DNA of 26,225 nt, taken from Vampirovibrionaceae bacterium NZW_1234 (GTDB lineage Bacteria > Cyanobacteriota > Vampirovibrionia > Vampirovibrionales > JAGQHJ01). The translations under genes were made by a program, and so were the position numbers. Every line of letters starts with the position of its first letter. Within the stretch, counting starts at the first letter, position 1. The notes under the pieces are model-generated. The model was not told where the DNA came from, ran no database searches, and was given only the letters and a program-made list of their open reading frames with translations. The stretch covers positions 1-26,225 of the forward strand of contig JBGUGD010000036.1 of the NCBI GenBank assembly GCA_041697335.1, written 5' to 3'. This document shows, one piece after another, positions 3,985 through 26,225 of this stretch.

Positions 3985-5067
3985 GTGACGACTTCTTCGA
4001 CTGGTTACAGCTACAGCTATTCGTATTCTTACAGTTATAGCTATTCTTATAGCGGCAGTGGTACGGTGCCTACTGTTCCGACGATGCCCACGGTTACTGG
4101 GGGTATTGGCGGCGGCGCCGGCATATCCGGCAGTATCGGTGGCGGTGCTGGTATTTCTGGCGGCATGATGCCCTTCCCAGGCATGAGTGGCAGTATTACC
4201 ATATCCGGCAGCATTGGCGGTGGCGCAGGCTTCTACGGTGGCGCTGGTGTCGGAGCCGGAATCTACGGTGGTGTTGGCGGCGGTGCTGGCCTCTATGGTG
4301 GCTTTGGCGGCGGCGCAGGCCTTTATGGTGGCGTTGGCGGCGGCACAGGCCTCTATGGCGGCGTTGGCGGCGGCGCAGGCCTCTATGGCGGCTTTGGCGG
4401 CGGTGCTGGCCTCTATGGCGGCTTTGGCGGCGGAGCCGGAATCTACGGTGGCTTTGGCACCGGCGGTGGGTTCGGAACCCCCGGCATGCCCATCGGCTTT
4501 GGGACCCCCGGCGTATACGGCGGGTTTGGGACCGGCGGCGGATTTGGAACACCGGGCATGCCCAGTGGCTTTGGCAGTGCGCCCATCATTATGATTAATC
4601 CCAACATCAACATCAATTTTAATCCCACGATCAACATCAACACGACACCGACAGCACCTGTGGCAACCCCACCGGCCGCTCCGGACACCAGTGAGAACCA
4701 GGCTATCCAGTGGATGCGAGCCTTGTTCCCCACCCTGGATCGAAACGCCAACGGTGTCTTAGAAGCCTCTGAACTGGAAGCTGCCCGGGAACTCTTCCGG
4801 GGCGTGAACCCCAACCTGGGTGAAGCAGTCAACCAGATGCTGAGCAATATGGATCAGTTGATGTTTGCCCAAGTGGACCCGGAAAACAAATCCTGGCACG
4901 GGCTCACCATGAACGATTTAAACGTCCTTTCTACTCGTACCGGTAGTGGGGAGCGCTTAAATCGCATCGCCCGCCAGCTCCAGGAGGCTATTTCGACAGA
5001 GCGTGGCATTGCCCCAGGCGGGTTTGCAGACCACGTTCGTGAAGAGCGGACTCGTCGTCCCCTCTAA
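3985..5067 (+). CDS. Low-complexity Gly/Tyr/Ser-repeat protein with C-terminal EF-hand-like domain
   Basis: (YS)8 tract, repeated GGGAG(L/I/F)YGG(V/F/A) decapeptides, Ile/Asn-alternating segment and EF-hand-like loop DRNANGVLEASE; synonymous codon variation between repeats supports coding in this frame; GTG start. Confidence 0.75.
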   Translation: MTTSSTGYSYSYSYSYSYSYSYSGSGTVPTVPTMPTVTGGIGGGAGISGSIGGGAGISGGMMPFPGMSGSITISGSIGGGAGFYGGAGVGAGIYGGVGGGAGLYGGFGGGAGLYGGVGGGTGLYGGVGGGAGLYGGFGGGAGLYGGFGGGAGIYGGFGTGGGFGTPGMPIGFGTPGVYGGFGTGGGFGTPGMPSGFGSAPIIMINPNININFNPTININTTPTAPVATPPAAPDTSENQAIQWMRALFPTLDRNANGVLEASELEAARELFRGVNPNLGEAVNQMLSNMDQLMFAQVDPENKSWHGLTMNDLNVLSTRTGSGERLNRIARQLQEAISTERGIAPGGFADHVREERTRRPL

Positions 5068-14600: not shown

Positions 14601-17600
14601 TTGGTGCACTGTCCGCAGTGTGGCATAAATATCCCAAACCCCGGTACCCATTGCCCGGCCTGTCAGGCCAGCTTAATGAAGAGCTGCCCGGCATGCCATT
14701 ATAAAAACCTGAGCCATCAGCAGTTTTGTGGGCAGTGTGGTTCGGATTTAAACGCCACGGCCCATCAGGGGCTTCAGACCAAAACCCCGGCCGAGCCAAA
14801 AACCGAAGCCCTGAGCTATATGCCGGTGTTGAGTGCCGAGATTTTAAACCTGGATAAATTGGGCGAACGCCTCAACAATCCGGGCCAACTGGCCCGCCTG
14901 ACCAAAGACTTGATGGGACGCCTGGAAAGCCAGTTGACTGCCCAGGGGGCGACCATTGAATCCATTCGAGACAGTGTGATTTTCTTTTCCTTCCGCCATG
15001 GGACGGTCCTGGGTGAAGTCCTGTCGCGAGCCCTGAAAGTGGGCATTGCCCTGGTGAAAAAGACCATTCGTCTTCAGGACATCGATCTGCAAATTCGTGT
15101 TGGGCTGGATGTGGTTCACATCAACGAGCGAAGCCCGATGACGGGGGTTGCCGAACGTCTGGTGGCAAGGCCCGGGCAGATCGTAGTGAGCTACAACGTC
15201 TTTCAAATGACCAACAAGCAGCTGCCCTACGAAACCATTGGCCCCATCAAGGTTCAGGGCGAAATGAAGACCTTTTTCAAAATTGCCATGGAGCGCCAGG
15301 CTCCGCCTCCCTCGCCCCCTCAGGCGGCCATGCCCCAGGACCCGACGCCGCCTAATCCTGTGGCTCAAGAGTCCGCTCCTGAGACTGGAGTACCGGAAAA
15401 TACCCCAGAGTACGTGTCTCACGAGGCTCAGCCCAGTACACCGCCCCCTCAAGAAATGGCCGCTCCCCCGCCAGGGTTGATCACGGAAGCCCCGGCAACA
15501 CCCCAGCGGATTGCCCCCATGGAACGCAAGATTGAACCGGTGGAGCAGCCTGGGAGCCTGAATTACGAGCCTCCCGACTGGGTGATGCGCCAGAAAGAGT
15601 CCAAAATCAGCAATATTTCCTACCAGCATGCCATTCACTCGCTGGAAAACGAACTGAAGGATGCGCTTCAGAATCCCAAGAGCAAAGTCCGGCTGGTGGC
15701 TCTCGCCGGGCCATCGGGTTCGGGGAAATCGACCATTCTTAATATGATCCGCTCCAACATGCAGCAGGACGCCCAGTTCTGGGTGGGCGGGCATTTTTAC
15801 GAAGGGTATTTCAAGAACCTGTTTCCATTGCAGTACTGGTTCATGGTCATCCAGGATTTGGTGGGCTTTGCCCTGGAAGGCGTACCCCAGGATCAGGGGC
15901 GGGAACACCTTCAAAATATGCTTCAATCGGTCTTCGCCGAAAACTACACCCCGGACAAGTTGGATTTCTTTGAAACCTTTTTGTCGTTGAAACCCCTTCA
16001 CGGGATCCAGCCCGATTCCCGGCAATACCTGGGCCGTCTGATTCCCTTTATTGCCGATCTGTTGAACGCCATGGCCAGTATCAAGCCCCTGATGCTGGTG
16101 ATGGAGGATCTGCAATTTGCCGATTCGGCCTCGATGGAGCTGTTTTCCCAACTGTTGCAACACAATCTGCTCAGTCCCAACATCACCATTATTATGACCT
16201 ATACGCCGGATCTGGTGCTTGCCGGCAACCTGCAACAGCTTTTTAATCTGTCGCCCTTCAAGGAACTGATTCTGGATCCCCTGGATGAAGAGAATCTGGT
16301 GAGCATGGCGGAAGTTCCGCTGACCATTCCCTGGAAGAAGCTGCCCGATGCGTTTCGAGCCCAGCTTCTGGAAAAAGGCTCGCCCCTGTTTCTGGAAGAA
16401 GCCTTTCGTTGGCTGCTGCTCAACGGCGGGTTTTCCATTCATCCCAAAAGCGGCAAGTTCAACCCGGAAAAGAAGCTTAAAACCCTCACGGCGCCGGAAG
16501 ATGTGCGGCAGCTGATCTATGACCGCATTCTTCACATGGACGATGCGGGACGCTATGTGTTGCAAGTGGCCAGTGTCCTGGGCGAGCGGTTCTCGACCAA
16601 GGCCCTGATGGATATGACCCAAATGCAGGACAAGTTGGAGACGGTCTTGCAGATGCTGTGGCAAAACGGCTTTATCGTCCCCGATACCGGCAACTCGGCC
16701 AAGTTCCGGCACCCCTTGATTTGGCAATTGGCGTATCAGAGCCTGGAAGAAGATGTCAGGCGTCAGCAGCACCAGTTGGTCCTGGACTACATGCTGCATA
16801 TGCAGGGCCAGGGCTTGGGCATTAATCCTGTACTGATCGCCTACCATGCGATGAATTCGGGCAATATGAGCCAGGCTATGGCGATGTGGCAAAATGCCGC
16901 CGTGTGGCTGACGGATGTGGGTTCCATCACCGGGGCCAATATCGGCTTTTACTTTGTTCAGCGCTTTATGGAGGCCGACGCCACCAACATCGATCCGATG
17001 CAACAAAAGCAGGTTTACGAAAGCTTGGGTATCCTGAACATGGACGCCTCGCCCGAGTATGCCAAGAACCTGTTTTTGACCGCACTGCGGTTCCAGGGGC
17101 AGAGTATTTCGGCCGAGCAGATCCAGATGCAGATTTTGCTGGCCCAGACCTACGAACGCCTGGGCTCCTACCCCATGGCCACCTCCACCATTTATCGGGC
17201 CCGCGAATCCATCAACCCCAATGAGCACCCGGTCGAAAGCGTTGCGCTGGCCCTTCAGGAAGTCTGGTACCTGCATATTCTGGGCAACTACCAGGAAGCC
17301 CTGTGGGTGTATCAGGAGTACGTGGCACCCCGGCTGCCGGAGGTGGAGAATGCGTTTTTGTCGGATCTCTCGCTTCGCTCGACGCTGTTTCGGGGCGAGT
17401 TGGCCCGCACCCGGGCCGGCCTGTTCCAGTGCCAGCCCTGGACCATGGATGTCATCGACAAGCTTCTGGCGCAGTGCGATATCAGCGATGATCGGTTTAT
17501 GGGCATTCATTTTCGCATTGCCCGCAGCCTTGGCATGTTGTTGAGGGGCAACTATGAGGGTTGCCAGCGGGAGCTGGATCCGTTGATTGCCGATGTGGAA

Positions 17601-18311
17601 ACCCTTCCCCAGCAACAGCAGCCGGAGCTGATGGTTTGGTGGGGTCTGGTGGTGTTGCTGTATCACATTGACCAGGGCGATTGGCAGAATGCCTCGATGC
17701 TGGTGCCCAATACGAGTTTTCAGGCCGAGCAGGCCCGGGATTTTCTGGCCTGGAGTTTGTGCCAAACACTGGCCGGGCGGATTTCCAGTGCAAGCGGTAA
17801 CCATAGCGAAGCCCAGCAGATTCTGGAGCAGGCGGTCACGGTTTCGGCCCAGTACTTCCTGTCGCACCCGGCCTTGTTGGGCTGGCGAATGCTGACCGAA
17901 AACGATCTGGCGTTGAACAACCTGGATACTGCCGAAGAGATCTGTCAGCGGGCGCTGGACATTGCCCAAAAGCCGCATATTCATAACACCTATGAGTTCT
18001 ATCAATTGACGATTACGCATGCCAGACTCCTCTTGGCCCGTAAATCCTTTAAAGAAGCCGGAGCCCTGTTGGAAAAGCATTGGCCCGCCCTGGTGAAATC
18101 CGGGTATATGCCGCTGGTCGCGGAGGTCGCTTTTCTCATCAGTCAGCTTTATGGGCAATTGGCCGCCACCTTGCCGGAGCCGCACCAGTCGAAGTACCGG
18201 GGGCAACAGCAGAACTTCTTGCAGAAGGCCAAAACCCTGTGGCAGGAACAGGGAAACTCCTATCGTCTGGCCCCGCTCCTCCAACAAGAAGCTGCATCGG
18301 CCTCGTTTTAA
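14601..18311 (+). CDS. Double zinc-ribbon + degenerate class III nucleotidyl cyclase-like + STAND/AAA ATPase + TPR-like protein (start may be GTG at 14604)
   Basis: CPQC/CPAC/CPAC/CGQC; cyclase-like VLSAEI..RDSVI..IRVGL..ARPGQIVVS..GPIKVQG; Pro-rich linker; Walker A GPSGSGKS; Walker B LVMEDLQFAD; GSPLFLEE; LQVASVLGERF; FRHPLI; helical C-terminus. Confidence 0.8.
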   Translation: MVHCPQCGINIPNPGTHCPACQASLMKSCPACHYKNLSHQQFCGQCGSDLNATAHQGLQTKTPAEPKTEALSYMPVLSAEILNLDKLGERLNNPGQLARLTKDLMGRLESQLTAQGATIESIRDSVIFFSFRHGTVLGEVLSRALKVGIALVKKTIRLQDIDLQIRVGLDVVHINERSPMTGVAERLVARPGQIVVSYNVFQMTNKQLPYETIGPIKVQGEMKTFFKIAMERQAPPPSPPQAAMPQDPTPPNPVAQESAPETGVPENTPEYVSHEAQPSTPPPQEMAAPPPGLITEAPATPQRIAPMERKIEPVEQPGSLNYEPPDWVMRQKESKISNISYQHAIHSLENELKDALQNPKSKVRLVALAGPSGSGKSTILNMIRSNMQQDAQFWVGGHFYEGYFKNLFPLQYWFMVIQDLVGFALEGVPQDQGREHLQNMLQSVFAENYTPDKLDFFETFLSLKPLHGIQPDSRQYLGRLIPFIADLLNAMASIKPLMLVMEDLQFADSASMELFSQLLQHNLLSPNITIIMTYTPDLVLAGNLQQLFNLSPFKELILDPLDEENLVSMAEVPLTIPWKKLPDAFRAQLLEKGSPLFLEEAFRWLLLNGGFSIHPKSGKFNPEKKLKTLTAPEDVRQLIYDRILHMDDAGRYVLQVASVLGERFSTKALMDMTQMQDKLETVLQMLWQNGFIVPDTGNSAKFRHPLIWQLAYQSLEEDVRRQQHQLVLDYMLHMQGQGLGINPVLIAYHAMNSGNMSQAMAMWQNAAVWLTDVGSITGANIGFYFVQRFMEADATNIDPMQQKQVYESLGILNMDASPEYAKNLFLTALRFQGQSISAEQIQMQILLAQTYERLGSYPMATSTIYRARESINPNEHPVESVALALQEVWYLHILGNYQEALWVYQEYVAPRLPEVENAFLSDLSLRSTLFRGELARTRAGLFQCQPWTMDVIDKLLAQCDISDDRFMGIHFRIARSLGMLLRGNYEGCQRELDPLIADVETLPQQQQPELMVWWGLVVLLYHIDQGDWQNASMLVPNTSFQAEQARDFLAWSLCQTLAGRISSASGNHSEAQQILEQAVTVSAQYFLSHPALLGWRMLTENDLALNNLDTAEEICQRALDIAQKPHIHNTYEFYQLTITHARLLLARKSFKEAGALLEKHWPALVKSGYMPLVAEVAFLISQLYGQLAATLPEPHQSKYRGQQQNFLQKAKTLWQEQGNSYRLAPLLQQEAASASF

Positions 18312-18412
18312 GGTAAATTTTTAACCTTTTTCCTTTCATGAATGCTTTTTAACTGAAACGCTCCCGCAGACCCAGGAACGCGGGTAGGTTTGGGGGATTT
18401 TATGACGGATAA

Positions 18413-18648
18413 ACATCCATATCGCCGTTCGGCCAAATTGGCCGAACGGTGAATGGGGCTGACACGACCGTGTGGCCAAATTGGCCACACGGTAAATGGG
18501 GGTATGATTCCGTACGGACATTTTGGCCGTACGGCAGATCGACATTCATATCGCCGTTCGGCCAAATTGGCCGAACGGTGGATGAGGCTGACACGACCGT
18601 GTGGCCAAATTGGCCACTCGGTAAATGGAGGTATGATTCCCCGTAAGG
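18413..18648. repeat. Array of five 25-bp palindromes (CCGTNNGGCCAAATTGGCCNNACGG) with 17-19 bp linkers, nested in a 129-bp higher-order duplication
   Basis: Palindromes start at 18425, 18468, 18510, 18554 and 18597; 18413-18511 recurs at 18542-18640. Confidence 0.92.
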
Positions 18649-18722
18649 TGAAGTCGCCCCTAAGAGGCAGAGGTTAAGCTGTGGGTTGGATATCGGCGTA
18701 AGCATCGTCATCATGTGGGTTG

Positions 18723-18750
18723 AGCCTTGGCTTTTGGGGCTTTTTTTGTT
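18723..18750 (+). terminator. Possible intrinsic terminator downstream of the palindrome array
   Basis: AGCCTT...GGGGCT stem (with G-U pairs) followed by TTTTTTTGTTT. Confidence 0.5.
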
Positions 18751-18852
18751 TATATTCCCAAACTCAAGGCATTCTAAACCCACCTTAAGACTTTCTTAAT
18801 GATTTAGAGGGACTTTTCGCCTTTAAAACACATTCAACGCGATAGTGATGGG

Positions 18853-20001
18853 CTAGGTCAGGTTGCCGCGACGTTCCTGATCCCGTTCGATAGCTTCAAA
18901 CAAGGCTTTAAAATTGCCTTTTCCAAAGCCTTCGGAGCCTTGGCGCTGGATGATCTCGAAGAAGAAGGTTGGGCGGTCCTGGATGGGTTGGGTGAAAATC
19001 TGGAGCAGGTAGCCTTCTTCATCGCGGTCGATGAGGATGCCAAGCTTGGCCAGTTCGGCCAGGGGTTCGGCAATATCACCGACGCGCTGGGCAATGTCAT
19101 CATAATACGCTTGGGGTACGGTCATCAGGTCCACACCGTTTTGTCGGAGGGCCGAGACGGTTTCGATGATGTCATCGGTGGCAATGGCAATGTGCTGGGC
19201 ACCGGCGGAGCCATAGTAGTCCAGGTACTCCTGGATCTGGGACTTGCGTAACCCGGCAGCCGGTTCGTTGATGGGCATTTTGACAGAGCCCGAGCGGTTG
19301 GCCATGACCTTGGAGACCAGGGCCGAATACTGGGTGCTGATGTCCTTTTCATCGAAATGGCGTAGGACATAGAAGCCAAAGACCGATTCGTAGTAGCGGA
19401 CCCAGTGATCCATAAAGCCGGTTTCCACGTTGCCCACAATATGATCGACCCGCTTGAGGCCCGTGGACCGACCCGGCACATGCAGGGGCTTAAACCCGGG
19501 CTCATACACCCCTTGATACCCTTCTTTGCTGACCAAGGTATGGGTGGTGTCGCCATAGGTGGCCAGGGTCGCCTTGGTCACCACACCAAATTCGTCTTCC
19601 AGGGTGATGGGGGCTTGAACCGACGTGGCGCCCCGGTCAACGGCCAGGCGATAGGCCGCCTCAACATCAGACACCTTCATGCCGATGTCTTTCACGCCGT
19701 CCCCATGGCGCTGGACATGGAGGCTGGCCGGATGGTCCGGTAACAGGGCCGAGGTCACCACGAACTGGATATTGTTCTGGCGAAGAAGATAAGAGGCCGT
19801 CTCCCGATAGCCGGTTTCCGGGCCGCGGTAGGCCACAATGTCAAAGCCGAAAAGCTTGTTGTAAAAGTAGGCCGCCTGCTTGGCGTTGCCCACATAATAC
19901 TCGATGGCGGCAAAGTCCGAAACCGGAATTTCGGACACGGATGTCGAGTTGGCGTTGGGGTTGGTCATGGGCGGGGTCATGGGTTCCGTGGTCATCATCA
20001 T
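18853..20001 (-). CDS. hppD: 4-hydroxyphenylpyruvate dioxygenase
   Basis: EYYVGNAKQAA, HGDGVKDI, DHIVGNV, KMPINEP, SQIQEYL, QHIA, YLLQIFT, FFEIIQR and GFGKGNFKALFEAIE; start placed at ATG 20001 after GGAGG. Confidence 0.95.
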   Translation of the reverse strand: MMMTTEPMTPPMTNPNANSTSVSEIPVSDFAAIEYYVGNAKQAAYFYNKLFGFDIVAYRGPETGYRETASYLLRQNNIQFVVTSALLPDHPASLHVQRHGDGVKDIGMKVSDVEAAYRLAVDRGATSVQAPITLEDEFGVVTKATLATYGDTTHTLVSKEGYQGVYEPGFKPLHVPGRSTGLKRVDHIVGNVETGFMDHWVRYYESVFGFYVLRHFDEKDISTQYSALVSKVMANRSGSVKMPINEPAAGLRKSQIQEYLDYYGSAGAQHIAIATDDIIETVSALRQNGVDLMTVPQAYYDDIAQRVGDIAEPLAELAKLGILIDRDEEGYLLQIFTQPIQDRPTFFFEIIQRQGSEGFGKGNFKALFEAIERDQERRGNLT

Positions 20002-20060
20002 CCTATCCCTCCAGAGGTTTCCGGCCCCATGGGCATGGCGTCGGGCCGGGATCAATGAAT

Positions 20061-22698: not shown

Positions 22699-22774
22699 GG
22701 GGCATTAGCGCAGTTGGTAGCGCGTCTCAATGGCATTGAGAAGGTCAGGAGTTCGAATCTCCTATGCTCCACCA
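22699..22774 (+). tRNA. tRNA-Ala (GGC)
   Basis: 76 nt from GGGGCAT to ATGCTCCACCA; D-arm GCGCAGTTGGTAGCGC; anticodon stem TCTCA/TGAGA with loop ATGGCAT; T-loop GTTCGAATC; G3-U70 alanine identity pair; encoded CCA. Confidence 0.97.
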
Positions 22775-22890
22775 GTTTTAGACATCGGAATCTCCCGCAA
22801 CCTTCTCAGTTTCAGAAATTGGGAAATAATTTTGGTGCGTTTCCCTATATAGATTATGTAGATGAACATAACAAAAGGGAAACTCACACG

Positions 22891-24021
22891 ATGCGTGGAA
22901 AACGACGAATCAGCCCAACTTCAAAACAACTTCAAAATTCTAAGAATGCTCTGATGAATAGTGGTGCAGCTTGCTATACAGTTGCCGAAGCCGCTCAAAT
23001 CTTGGATAAATCCATTCAAACCATCACCAATTGGTGTAAAACAGGAAGAATCCAAGCTCTTCCTGTTCCATTTGGACTTAAAGTCACTTGGCAAATTCCT
23101 CAAATCAGCATTGAACTCATTAAACAACAAGAAAAGGTCAAAGAAGCTCGTAAAAACAGCTTTACGCCTATAAAAGATACTGAAAAACAGCTCGATTTAC
23201 TGCCAGTATTCGATAAGGCTTGCTTAAATGGAGTCATTGGCGGGAGATCCTTCAGTGAAAGAACCATTGAGGTCAATCACTACTATATCGACAAGTTTCT
23301 CAATAAGTATGGTGTCGCCAATTCAAAGACCTTAAAACAAGAGCTAGCCGATATTCATCCTGAACTGTTTGCCAAAAGAGAGAAAACCTGGACTGCTTTA
23401 CGGTGCTTTATGAAATGGATGGTCGATGAAGGTTTTGCTGATGTCAGAATCCTTGAAGGATTCCCTGACAAACCTAAAAGACATAAACCGCCCAAAAGGA
23501 CTTCTTTAACGGAAGAACAACTTGATCAAATGGAAGCTGCTTGTAAGAACATTTACGAAAAGACGGTTGTAATTGTCCTCTCTCAAACAGGTATCCGTTC
23601 TGGGGAATTCTGTAACCTCAGATGTGAGGACATTGATCTGGAGAATCGTGTCCTTTATATAAGGAAAGCCAAATGGGGTAAAACCCGTAAAGTCGCTTTG
23701 ACCCGTAAAGCGGCTGAGACGTTACAGGCGTATCTTGAAGAGCATCCTCGTAAGCCCAAGGATAGGATGTTTTTGAACAGCTTGGATAAACCGCTTCATC
23801 GAGATGGTTTAATCAATCGATTAAGGAGAATTGGGCAAAGAGTTGGCGTTCATGCTCACCCTCATGCCATGAGAAGAGCTTTTGTAACCATTAACATTGC
23901 CAAAGGACGAAGTATCGTTGATATTCAGGTGCTTTGTGGACATACGAGAATCTCTACTACAAGAGAATACTGTCAAACCACGAATGATGATGCGGTTAGT
24001 CGGATGAAAGATTGGGATTAG
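22891..24021 (+). CDS. Tyrosine recombinase/integrase with N-terminal excisionase-like HTH
   Basis: Catalytic set TGIRSGE (R), KAKWGK (K), HAMRR (HxxR), LCGH (H) and TREY (Y); N-terminal YTVAEAAQILDKSIQTITNWCKTGRI. Start at 22891 (or 22954); the listed 22555 start reads through the tRNA. Confidence 0.9.
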   Translation: MRGKRRISPTSKQLQNSKNALMNSGAACYTVAEAAQILDKSIQTITNWCKTGRIQALPVPFGLKVTWQIPQISIELIKQQEKVKEARKNSFTPIKDTEKQLDLLPVFDKACLNGVIGGRSFSERTIEVNHYYIDKFLNKYGVANSKTLKQELADIHPELFAKREKTWTALRCFMKWMVDEGFADVRILEGFPDKPKRHKPPKRTSLTEEQLDQMEAACKNIYEKTVVIVLSQTGIRSGEFCNLRCEDIDLENRVLYIRKAKWGKTRKVALTRKAAETLQAYLEEHPRKPKDRMFLNSLDKPLHRDGLINRLRRIGQRVGVHAHPHAMRRAFVTINIAKGRSIVDIQVLCGHTRISTTREYCQTTNDDAVSRMKDWD

Positions 24022-24176
24022 GATATTCTCAGTAACAGGCTCATAGAAGCTCTGACCTACCAAGGCTTAGCCATGTGTATAATGAAGAAGAGGCACCTAG
24101 CCTGAAGCTGATGGTGTCCTTGATTGAATTCTCAGTATTTGATTGTCGAGTTTGTTGGAGCAAGGAGCATAAGTAG

Positions 24177-24803
24177 ATGGAAGAACAGACCTTAGAAGAA
24201 GAGCTGAAGCAGAAGAGGCATCTTGAATACCCTTTTATAGATTTAAGTGGTCATCATACCATATATGCTAGCTTTTCTGACATAATGAGAGAGTTATCTG
24301 AGCATTGTATAGGCTTAAACAGAGTCTCTATTATTGTAGATTGTGTGCATAAAAATCCTAAATACCCACCAACGAAGGATAATTTTAAAGATTCTCAATA
24401 TTATAGTGCTTTTGTATGGCCTGTAGAGAGTGGATATAGTGCTATGAAGCAAATGAGAGCATTCTCTTTCAATTGTATTGACCTTCCCCAAGAGCTATGC
24501 TATCCACATCTTCATGAATTTATTTATGATTTTAGCCATGATCCAGAAGATTATACTCATCTTATAGGCTATGCTCGAAATTTCAAAAAAGAAATACTTG
24601 AGATTGTTCTTAAACATCAGGGTAATCATGAAAAACTTGGTAAAGCACTTGATAAAATATCTGACCAAGTAGATAAAGAGCAAGGTGATTTCTCATTCGG
24701 TGCTATATGGAGTGAGCTTGAGAAAGATAATTATGTAACACTTCAAGAGACTTGGTGGCATCTCACAGATAAAGGAATTCAATATCTGAATGATCTCCAA
24801 TGA
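24177..24803 (+). CDS. Hypothetical protein with possible C-terminal winged-helix
   Basis: 208-aa ORF with AAGGAG RBS; C-terminal ELEKDNYV...WHLTDKGIQYL pattern. Confidence 0.6.
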   Translation: MEEQTLEEELKQKRHLEYPFIDLSGHHTIYASFSDIMRELSEHCIGLNRVSIIVDCVHKNPKYPPTKDNFKDSQYYSAFVWPVESGYSAMKQMRAFSFNCIDLPQELCYPHLHEFIYDFSHDPEDYTHLIGYARNFKKEILEIVLKHQGNHEKLGKALDKISDQVDKEQGDFSFGAIWSELEKDNYVTLQETWWHLTDKGIQYLNDLQ

Positions 24804-24865
24804 TGACATCGAAATACTCCCCATGAGACTCTAAGGTGGTTTAAAAACTATCCTCGCATTATTTA

Positions 24866-24904
24866 TTAAACAAAAACAATGGGTCACTTTTTTAAGGTGA
24901 CCCA
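24866..24904 (-). terminator. Intrinsic terminator of the leftward element genes
   Basis: TGGGTCAC/GTGACCCA stem followed on the minus strand by TTGTTTTTGTTT. Confidence 0.75.
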
Positions 24905-24913
24905 CCTGTGCTC

Positions 24914-25267
24914 TTACTGCTCTGCCCATACTTTAAGGCGGTTAAAACTTATATAATACTCGCCTTTTTCTTCAAGGGTTTGCGTTATATAAGCCCTCGC
25001 ATAACTTTTACCTATTGCTGTGATTTCATAATCGGGGAGATTCCCACACTCATCATCAAGAAACCCTAAGTTAGAGAGTTTTCTTGTTAATTTATGAGGA
25101 AATCGTGTTTTATCATCGAAAGAATCCCGAGGTAATTTATCGAACATAAAACCGCAATAAAGATCCTCAGGAAATCTATCGGTCATGTAATATATTGCTA
25201 GCATATCCCACTCACTTTTTGTAAGTGTTACGCCCACATTTATTTCAATATCAGGATTGTCTAACAT
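24914..25267 (-). CDS. Hypothetical protein, possible winged-helix (start likely at MLDNP)
   Basis: ORF with AAGGA RBS before ATG 25267; KLSNLGFL...YEITAIGKSY pattern. Confidence 0.55.
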   Translation of the reverse strand: MLDNPDIEINVGVTLTKSEWDMLAIYYMTDRFPEDLYCGFMFDKLPRDSFDDKTRFPHKLTRKLSNLGFLDDECGNLPDYEITAIGKSYARAYITQTLEEKGEYYISFNRLKVWAEQ

Positions 25268-25294
25268 TGATTTTATTCCTTTTTTTGCTACTGC

Positions 25295-25330
25295 CTCAGA
25301 ACCCAACCAATTCCCCAAAGCCAGCTACCT
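25295..25330 (-). repeat. 36-bp intergenic motif, copy 1
   Basis: CTCAGAACCCAACCAATTCCCCAAAGCCAGCTACCT (plus strand). Confidence 0.85.
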
Positions 25331-25340
25331 GTTAGGTCAA

Positions 25341-25556
25341 TTAGAACAAGAGAAATCGCTTGGCTTTTTCCTTGTTTTCACAGAACTCTCGAAACTCCTT
25401 AAAAAAGTCGTCAACATCATGCTTGGTTAATAGGATGAATATATCGCTGTCCTTTATTACCACCTGTCTTCTTGTTTGGCTAGGGTGCATAATCGTGCAA
25501 ACAACGGAATCAAAACGGATTGCACCATAATCATGAGTGAAATAATAATTTTTCAT
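25341..25556 (-). CDS. Small hypothetical protein
   Basis: 71-aa ORF with AGGAG RBS, collinear with its neighbours. Confidence 0.55.
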   Translation of the reverse strand: MKNYYFTHDYGAIRFDSVVCTIMHPSQTRRQVVIKDSDIFILLTKHDVDDFFKEFREFCENKEKAKRFLLF

Positions 25557-25581
25557 ACAAATACTCCTATATTTTTTCTAA

Positions 25582-25617
25582 CTCAGTCCCCAACCAATCC
25601 CCCAAAGCCAGCTACCT
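25582..25617 (-). repeat. 36-bp intergenic motif, copy 2
   Basis: CTCAGTCCCCAACCAATCCCCCAAAGCCAGCTACCT; 33/36 identical to copy 1. Confidence 0.85.
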
Positions 25618-25633
25618 TAGCTAATTAGTGGGA

Positions 25634-26224
25634 TTAAATCCAAGGCTCATCATCTACAAATGAAAAGTCATCATCATCGCTTTCTGTATTTGACTCCTCA
25701 GGTAAGTCCTCACTAACCGGCTGTTGGATAGGCTCATCAAAAATTGGCTCTGGAGGAGATGTTGTTTTCTCCACAACCGTTGTCTCCATGCCTGGGTATT
25801 CACGCAAAACATTAAAGTATTCATACCAATCAATCCGAGAGATGAACTGGTTCGCTATTGCCATTTCTTCTTCTGTAAGAGGCTCAGAAGGCTTCCAGTT
25901 AATTTGGTACTGAGTTGAATAGCTTTGACCAGTATAAGAAACCCGAAAAGTATAATCTTTCCATACATCAAAGCCCCCTAATTCTTGCATGTATTTCATT
26001 TCATGCTTAGGTGAGAGAATATATACCTTTGGACTGTCTTCGTGCCAAACGATAGCAAGGTATTTACGTTGCCGTTTCAGACCTTGAGTACAGCCGGGAC
26101 AATTTTGGGGTAAACAATCATATCGAACAGACTGCTTCCCTAATCCTGATGAATGGTAAGTAAACGCAACCGGCTTGGTTAAAACACGGTAAATAACTGG
26201 CTGGCCAGCTCGAAGGACTAGCTC
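25634..26224 (-). CDS. Putative phage gp32-like single-stranded DNA-binding protein, 5'-truncated by the window
   Basis: My manual translation shows the frame open from the window end: ...IYRVLTKPVAFTYHSSGLGKQSVRYDCLPQNCPGCTQGLKRQRKYLAIVW...DYTFRVSYTGQSYSTQY..., ending in an acidic tail ESDDDDFSFVDDEPWI. Confidence 0.6.
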   Translation of the reverse strand, partial: ELVLRAGQPVIYRVLTKPVAFTYHSSGLGKQSVRYDCLPQNCPGCTQGLKRQRKYLAIVWHEDSPKVYILSPKHEMKYMQELGGFDVWKDYTFRVSYTGQSYSTQYQINWKPSEPLTEEEMAIANQFISRIDWYEYFNVLREYPGMETTVVEKTTSPPEPIFDEPIQQPVSEDLPEESNTESDDDDFSFVDDEPWI

Positions 26225-26225
26225 A

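Follow-up and report, generated by a model that had tools for sequence, protein, structure and literature searches.

Dispersed 25-bp palindromes in a Vampirovibrionaceae genome, one of them repeated inside a phage-type ParB-like gene

KorB of RK2 is a ParB-fold clamp at dispersed OB palindromes near promoters, and spo0J of B. subtilis contains a parS. Small dispersed repeats of cyanobacteria were reportedly described by Elhai in 2008. Noc, which works with NBS in Bacillus, is a ParB paralogue, and in Caulobacter the recognition helix of ParB enters the major groove of its palindromic site, with few residues switching specificity (both from the accessible text of PMC7383237). REP/BIME elements and untagged stem-loop repeats are extragenic palindromes of 20–40 bp, lineage-specific and single or grouped, according to the accessible part of PMC3733652. 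Orphan proteins with the ParB-CTPase fold and without parA are enriched on phages and plasmids (PMC12704722); in the accessible portion of that source neither in-gene sites nor chromosomal spread are described.

The window (the whole stretch of DNA analysed, 26,225 nucleotides; contig C19 of a 3.70-Mb genome, G000, 94.75% complete) carries an array of 25-bp palindromes between an ATPase/TPR gene and hppD, whose 3′ ends converge on it (Table 1). The earlier note had described five units, and these were recovered, with perfect 12-bp arms about one base at 18425, 18468 and 18554 and, as claimed, one arm mismatch at 18597; its unit spacings (43, 42, 44 and 43 bp) and linkers (17–19 bp) are also correct. 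The 129-bp recurrence of the linkers is real and is a tandem duplication (18401–18511 and 18530–18640, 91% identical), so that only three units of the array are independent, and the three-unit module has an 82% match at C2:8475–8590. The description of the spacing as not a codon multiple does not hold, since 42 and 129 are codon multiples. Pieces 99% alike were found in two DNA runs, none of them covering the array. On the 3′ side of hppD, array and promoter were absent in all four same-family genomes (4/4), and the ATPase gene is not adjacent in those loci. The terminator-like stem listed in Table 1 is no better than the chance level for the region and may be the end of the upstream ATPase/TPR transcript. 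Elsewhere in the window, behind a tRNA-Ala(GGC) at 22699–22774 come a tyrosine integrase and orphan genes of low GC, and the region 22699–26225 is the edge of an integrated element; at 3985–5067 lies a protein rich in glycine, on a 30-bp tandem repeat basis, with an EF-hand-like tail.

Table 1. Coordinates of the array, its flanks and further repeat sets (window positions, or contig:position in G000)
Feature	Position	Strand
Unit 1 (family A), perfect arms	18425..18449	.
Unit 2 (family A), perfect arms; same sequence as the copy in the ParB-like gene, G000 C2:170454	18468..18492	.
Unit 3 (family A), arms with two mismatches	18510..18534	.
Unit 4 (family A), perfect arms; copy of unit 1 by duplication	18554..18578	.
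Unit 5 (family A), arms with one mismatch; copy of unit 2 by duplication	18597..18621	.
Sixth unit, start only, truncated; sits where unit 3 falls in the duplicated module	18641..18648	.
Tandem duplication, 129-bp period, 91%	18401..18640	.
SigB-type promoter motif GTTTAG-N14-GGGAAT, predicted, directed into the array	18754..18779	-
AAGG, Shine-Dalgarno-like	18725..18728	-
ORF, 104 codons, open across all five palindromes; no NCBIfam match	18400..18714	-
Terminator-like stem + T tail	18722..18742	+
Flanking gene: double zinc ribbon, AAA_16 ATPase, TPR protein; 3′ end toward array	14601..18311	+
Flanking gene hppD: 4-hydroxyphenylpyruvate dioxygenase; TIGR01263 above cut-off	18853..20055	-
Second module behind a SigB-type motif	C7:39647, C7:74126, C10:160775, C13:91376, C17:1047, C21:1955, C29:92815, C34:215365, C38:11544	
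CCAAAGGGCC-type palindromes, first of two listed sets	C5:33, C9:115344-115461, C16:51255, C25:90519-90636, C39:31112	
CACGCGTGA-type palindromes, second listed set	C5:151895, C8:4895, C9:66658, C10:47954, C25:24510, C26:101179	

The whole genome was counted with three patterns, allowing up to 3 mismatches. The array is the largest cluster of family A (31 copies at 15 loci), and two sister families that share its geometry occur as singlets, B with 16 and C with 17, so that A, B and C together comprise 64 copies at 48 loci on 23 contigs; the same patterns gave 0, 0 and 0 matches in the reversed genome, compared with 31, 16 and 17. The genome search proposed in the earlier note finds the unit dispersed rather than unique, with a copy inside a ParB-like gene and RAYT not found. 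Five of the 64 copies fall in ORFs of 200 aa or more, and neither origin clustering nor strand bias was seen among the 48 loci; no motif common to the flanks of B or C occurs in more than 4 loci. Perfect arms are carried by 19/31 copies of family A (4.4 expected under random half-site pairing), 13/16 of B (7.9 expected) and 13/17 of C (7.1 expected); arm symmetry thus belongs to the family as a whole, and the two arm mismatches of unit 18510 had not been flagged. Among the half-sites of family A, G occupies position 7 in 62/62 and position 8 in 60/62, with positions 5, 6 and 9 variable. Within clusters, 11/16 spacings lie no more than 1.5 bp from whole helical turns (8/13 with duplicates collapsed, p 0.035).

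Several known roles or classes were considered for the palindromes and set aside: a terminator role, as the flanks lack a common U-tail pattern on inspection; a CRISPR array, as the units differ, the 17–19-bp linkers recur with the duplication and most loci are singlets; and a MITE, as terminal inverted repeats with a target-site duplication were not found (in any one register, no more than 1 copy has direct repeats on its flanks). The genome also contains two more small families of imperfect palindromes, of CCAAAGGGCC type and CACGCGTGA type (Table 1). Three long ORFs, radA among them, hold in-frame palindromes of families C and B (C7:142487, C9:125563 and C14:9053), reminiscent of Rickettsia palindromic elements.

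The repeat is the palindrome carried by a ParB-like gene. With repeats masked and flanks compared, the copies at C2:170454 (A) and C13:204145 (B) proved to have homologous flanking DNA, and each lies in frame in one of two paralogous genes (314 and 318 aa), at codons that align with each other. Both paralogues match ParB_N (PF02195) above the Pfam cut-off (37 bits vs 26.3), and Box II GxxR, as SGxHR, is invariant across 9 aligned genes; scores for canonical ParB (TIGR00180; 35 and 46 bits vs 58.45) and for Noc (TIGR04285; 41 and 45 bits vs 315) fall below the cut-offs, and the closest families are the phage ParB-like phrog_4715 and phrog_3264. The genes are neighboured by a HEAT-repeat gene and an unknown gene, with no adjacent parA. 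Canonical ParB (TIGR00180) was found in none of the 49 genomes of the order searched, near-complete ones included, and the search for canonical parS gave one parS-like site with 2 mismatches in the genome. In the predicted structure (mean pLDDT 74.6, pTM 0.44), helices 155–163 and 167–182 form the candidate central HTH, the palindrome encodes a low-confidence linker directly N-terminal to the predicted HTH, and Foldseek places Noc, ParB and KorB at the top (Noc/ParB E 7e-9 to 4e-8, Noc as 7nfu; KorB as 8qa8 with E 1.7e-7, all for this pTM 0.44 model). Paralogue A has a branch of 1.16 compared with a median of 0.11 on the tree, which fits either a new function or decay. The third ParB_N match in the genome is a 214-aa gene on C26 adjoining a methyltransferase-like ORF; a third paralogue carrying family C was not found in the genome, and the in-gene palindrome of a relative (G020) resembles family C, which suggests such a third paralogue.

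The in-gene palindrome is a family-wide trait. Each of the 9 close genes (2 from this genome, 7 from 5 of 80 relatives) has its own in-phase palindrome with 0–3 mismatches. For phages and the phylum, 94 loci were collected, and after removal of 18 without the anchor motif and 9 duplicates, 67 remained; a palindrome (24–27 bp, mostly 25 bp, at most 2 mismatches) stands at this place in 55/67, with 1/67 and 0/67 in control windows, and 85 further loci, mostly N-domain matches, were left out of this analysis. All three reading frames are represented among these palindromes, which points to DNA rather than peptide as what is maintained. Back-translation of 151 distant proteins gave enrichment in one frame (40 vs 5/3), a weak signal in another (63 vs 44/42) and none in the third (28 vs 35/21).

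Dispersal was found in this genome only among those compared. Among 60 relatives, 2 genomes have a single match each to pattern A, both times inside a ParB-like gene, and none has a match to B or C; the exact A pattern is present at 5 loci of a 185,579-species collection, essentially single-copy per genome, and in those genomes the ParB matches cover the N-domain only. None of the 5 relatives having the ParB-like gene has dispersed copies, although G004 has one additional copy ahead of the gene, and a second palindrome copy was found in the flanks of 0/62 phage/phylum ParB-like loci, so the family's normal role does not need spread. This second G004 copy of the in-gene palindrome is operator-like in its position, ~300 bp upstream of the ParB-like gene (L154:368–392, C64:1767). 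Another 24-bp palindrome occurs in two copies upstream of ParB-like gene A, within a 132-codon ORF (C2:171179, C2:171368). A Luteolibacter gene without a Pfam match (L008:2824–3588) has an A-type palindrome before an HTH-like segment, and a Mycobacterium palustre contig holds a cluster of three related 25-mers (L006:3001, 4029, 4066). The in-gene trait may extend past ParB-like genes.

A residue of the predicted recognition helix co-varies with the palindrome. In 38 close proteins (295 alignment columns), residue 168 is Arg or Lys in 11/11 proteins that have Gly at palindrome codon 3 (GG, bases 7–8) and in 0/27 of the others; this residue lies close to where the predicted recognition helix begins and is, besides the defining column, the only exception-free column of the 295. 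On a tree from which these columns were left out, each trait changes 7 times, and independent pairs agree in 5/5 (p 0.0625, above 0.05). The next best columns lie near residue 168, all within one 35-residue block, so the same pattern could also come from block transfer by recombination or from a contact within the protein, without recognition of the site. Paralogue A has Arg at 168, and family A sites keep G7 and G8. A second helix pairing, for Ala at codon 6, was unsupported on the tree.

Family A loci share a layout of promoter motif and open frame. Aligning them gave a common motif, GTTTAR-N14-GGGWAY, which agrees with the SigB consensus (GTTTAA-N14-GGGTAT-like, as given in the accessible text of PMC9847131). 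The genome contains 28 matches at spacer 14, compared with 0–5 at spacers 9–13 and 15–20, and 9 for the reversed pattern, so some matches are due to chance. The motif precedes and is directed into 14/14 non-genic A loci at a distance of 87–186 bp (12 exact, 2 with one mismatch), compared with 19/600 random intergenic points (3%; 8 exact), and it stands at 0/16 and 1/17 copies of families B and C. In 13/14 A loci the first ATG follows 29–39 nt past the −10 box, mostly after AAGG or GAGG, and the frame (44–105 codons) is open through the first palindrome in 13/14, compared with 8/28 alternative frames (p 1.7e-4); because the loci are partly homologous, neither the promoter nor the ORF counts are independent. 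The candidate sigma factor (C28:9555) is SigF-like, with scores below the cut-offs (SigF 198 bits vs 261, SigBFG 191 vs 234).

The motif is also enriched in the same-family genome G004 (16 vs 1 in the control), and no 25-bp palindrome family was found downstream of it at the 15 G004 and 7 G003 matches examined. In G004 it often stands ahead of another repeat, AAAATGGCTTCGTTCG-like (L152, L153, L159, L160, L161, L165), and at C9:124836 of G000 it is followed by GAGTAGAAA-type repeats with a 10–11-bp period. A second intergenic module behind the same SigB-type motif occurs in ~10 copies in G000 (Table 1) and consists of short CGACAAA-type direct repeats, an inverted A/T-rich core at the centre and then reversed repeats, a layout that we take to resemble the arm-core-arm order of an integrase attP site.

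Since the in-gene palindrome is identical to an array unit, the repeats are likely docking sites of that ParB-like protein, and we lean towards reading the array and the dispersed family A copies as docking sites of a domesticated phage-type ParB clamp. The dimer, a predicted nucleotide-gated DNA clamp, would load at chromosomal palindromes, with its HTH reading the palindrome as double-stranded DNA. The in-gene copy may let the protein regulate its own gene or load onto the parent phage. The lineage would have retained two ParB-like genes, A and B, a third for C being lost or unassembled, and the sites would have been copied to the 48 chromosomal loci as whole units, followed by local tandem duplication. 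Loading of the clamp at A loci would take place ~100 bp downstream of a promoter of SigF/SigB type, where spreading or a roadblock would couple it to transcription, leaving the promoter repressed or blocked, and the unconserved ORF would ensure translation of the transcript across its hairpins, not yield a specific peptide. Of the options offered by the earlier note, phased dimer-binding sites tied to ParB appear the best supported, judging by the copy of unit 2 within the ParB-like gene and by spacings near whole turns. The symmetric arms of 19/31 copies point to whole-unit copying or hairpin repair and are left unexplained by docking sites; this excess counts against the docking model, because a duplex site need not match its arms at tolerant positions. 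Further points against it are that the 5 relatives with the gene show no spread, that a gene for C was not found, that families B and C lack the promoter motif and that paralogue A has its long branch. A more elaborate version, speculative and decidedly doubtful, is that phage ParB-like genes are self-addressed, each with its binding site in its own coding DNA and the site switching along with the recognition helix, and that the host, in an order where canonical ParB was not found, displays site variants in translated mock genes driven by a stress promoter, as a sink or sensor for its own clamps and for those of incoming phages. It rests on the array variants, which as peptides are close to those of other members of the ParB-like family, and on the same promoter motif fronting the attP-like module.

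A selfish repeat of untagged REP/BIME-like kind, seeded by the in-gene palindrome and spread by some nuclease, perhaps since lost, would persist between genes regardless of any continued use by the ParB-like protein. Restriction to the lineage, the occurrence as singlets, doublets and clusters, the insertions within the reading frames of radA and two further genes and the excess of arm symmetry are all in keeping with it, as is the position of families B and C between convergent genes (16/28 intergenic copies vs 232/1426, or 16%, in the background; p 1e-6). The genome (94.75% complete), however, yields no Y1_Tnp match (PF01797) at E≤1 and a single match to the REP tyrosine transposase model NF047646, at 11 bits compared with a cut-off of 80; a GTAG tag occurs in 0, 1 and 0 and a CGTC tag in 1, 2 and 1 of the 31, 16 and 17 copies of A, B and C, and target-site duplication is absent. 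The promoter, ATG and open frame of the A loci and the helix co-variation would also be left unexplained, and we regard this origin as unlikely. The REP/BIME-like option of the earlier note thus survives in the layout, dispersed and clustered, and falls on the missing GTAG/CGTC tag and RAYT; a tagged REP/RAYT system was rejected in the same way, dispersed palindromes being present and the tag and a cognate Y1 HUH transposase not found.

The A loci might instead encode stress-induced RNAs, with hairpins that serve the self-complementary 25-mer of the ParB-like mRNA as decoys or as antisense partners, which would suit the promoter motif at 14/14 loci, the strong predicted folding (z −7.9 and −7.3, although perfect palindromes fold whichever strand is used) and the central base, oriented as in the gene's sense in 24/31 family A copies. 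Arm mismatches on the promoter strand show no G-U bias, however (5 G-U, 5 A-C, 6 other), Rfam gave nothing at the gathering threshold (7 weak matches, the best 29.9 bits compared with 83), no conserved terminator was found on the promoter strand in the window, and families B and C lack the promoter; such RNA genes seem quite improbable, and the same mismatches and Rfam result give no support to the multi-hairpin ncRNA of the earlier note. Highly improbable, in our estimate, is that the A loci are small-protein genes with the palindrome-coded peptide as the working part: the ribosome-site-like word, the placement of the ATG and the open frames in 13/14 loci would suit it, but the first palindromes of these ORFs are read in all three frames and the window ORF has no family match. 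In small samples, the window duplicate has pN 0.098 vs pS 0.076 and the differences among three homologous leaders are even across codon positions, so that on these comparisons the A-locus peptides give no clear sign of purifying selection.

Docking of the ParB-like clamp, the reading that we prefer, would give a REP-like palindrome family without a transposase a traceable origin, with its source copy in coding DNA, within the gene of a DNA-binding protein, and would tie an untagged repeat to a named protein, a kind of tie that the accessible part of PMC3733652 lists as an open question. The analysis also offers a natural candidate recognition code, one helix residue against bases 7–8, in a large unstudied phage ParB-like family, and suggests how domestication can give rise afresh to a system of the Noc or KorB kind in a lineage for which the searches found no canonical ParABS. 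The literature searched, whose subscription coverage is incomplete, gave no account of palindromes inside genes of the ParB-like family or of their spread, so that one may already be published; what is new is the chromosome-wide spread of the in-gene palindrome, seen in no relative, and its layout.

By its features, the system falls outside tagged REPs, MITEs, CRISPR (by repeat and spacer), canonical ParABS and Noc. The likeness to Noc, as far as the accessible text on Noc goes, lies in an orphan ParB fold with a predicted HTH, best matched by 7nfu, in palindromic sites chromosome-wide and in few HTH-region residues setting specificity; the sites here are, however, 25 bp rather than 16, one of them lies in the protein's own gene, they are accompanied by predicted promoter-ORF cassettes, and the TIGR04285 scores are far below cut-off, with phage ParB-like families nearest. 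Chromosomal ParABS shares ParB_N with GxxR, the HTH (predicted here) and a palindromic site, and the parS of spo0J is a precedent for a site inside parB, but here there is no adjacent parA and no canonical parS, the sites are unclustered, and the site varies from gene to gene along with the helix. Like the orphan ParB-CTPase-fold proteins, the ParB-like genes here are without parA. REP/BIME elements, in the accessible account, are likewise often between convergent genes and sometimes in frame in genes, whereas the palindromes here have no tag, no RAYT, a one-base centre and a source copy in the gene of a DNA-binding protein. KorB/OB of RK2 shares the ParB fold, with 8qa8 matching the model, and dispersed palindromes by promoters, and differs in that the sites here are chromosomal, lie downstream of the promoter in short ORFs and include one in the protein's own gene. 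By analogy, the system would work most like Noc-NBS or KorB-OB, and it looks like REP/BIME.
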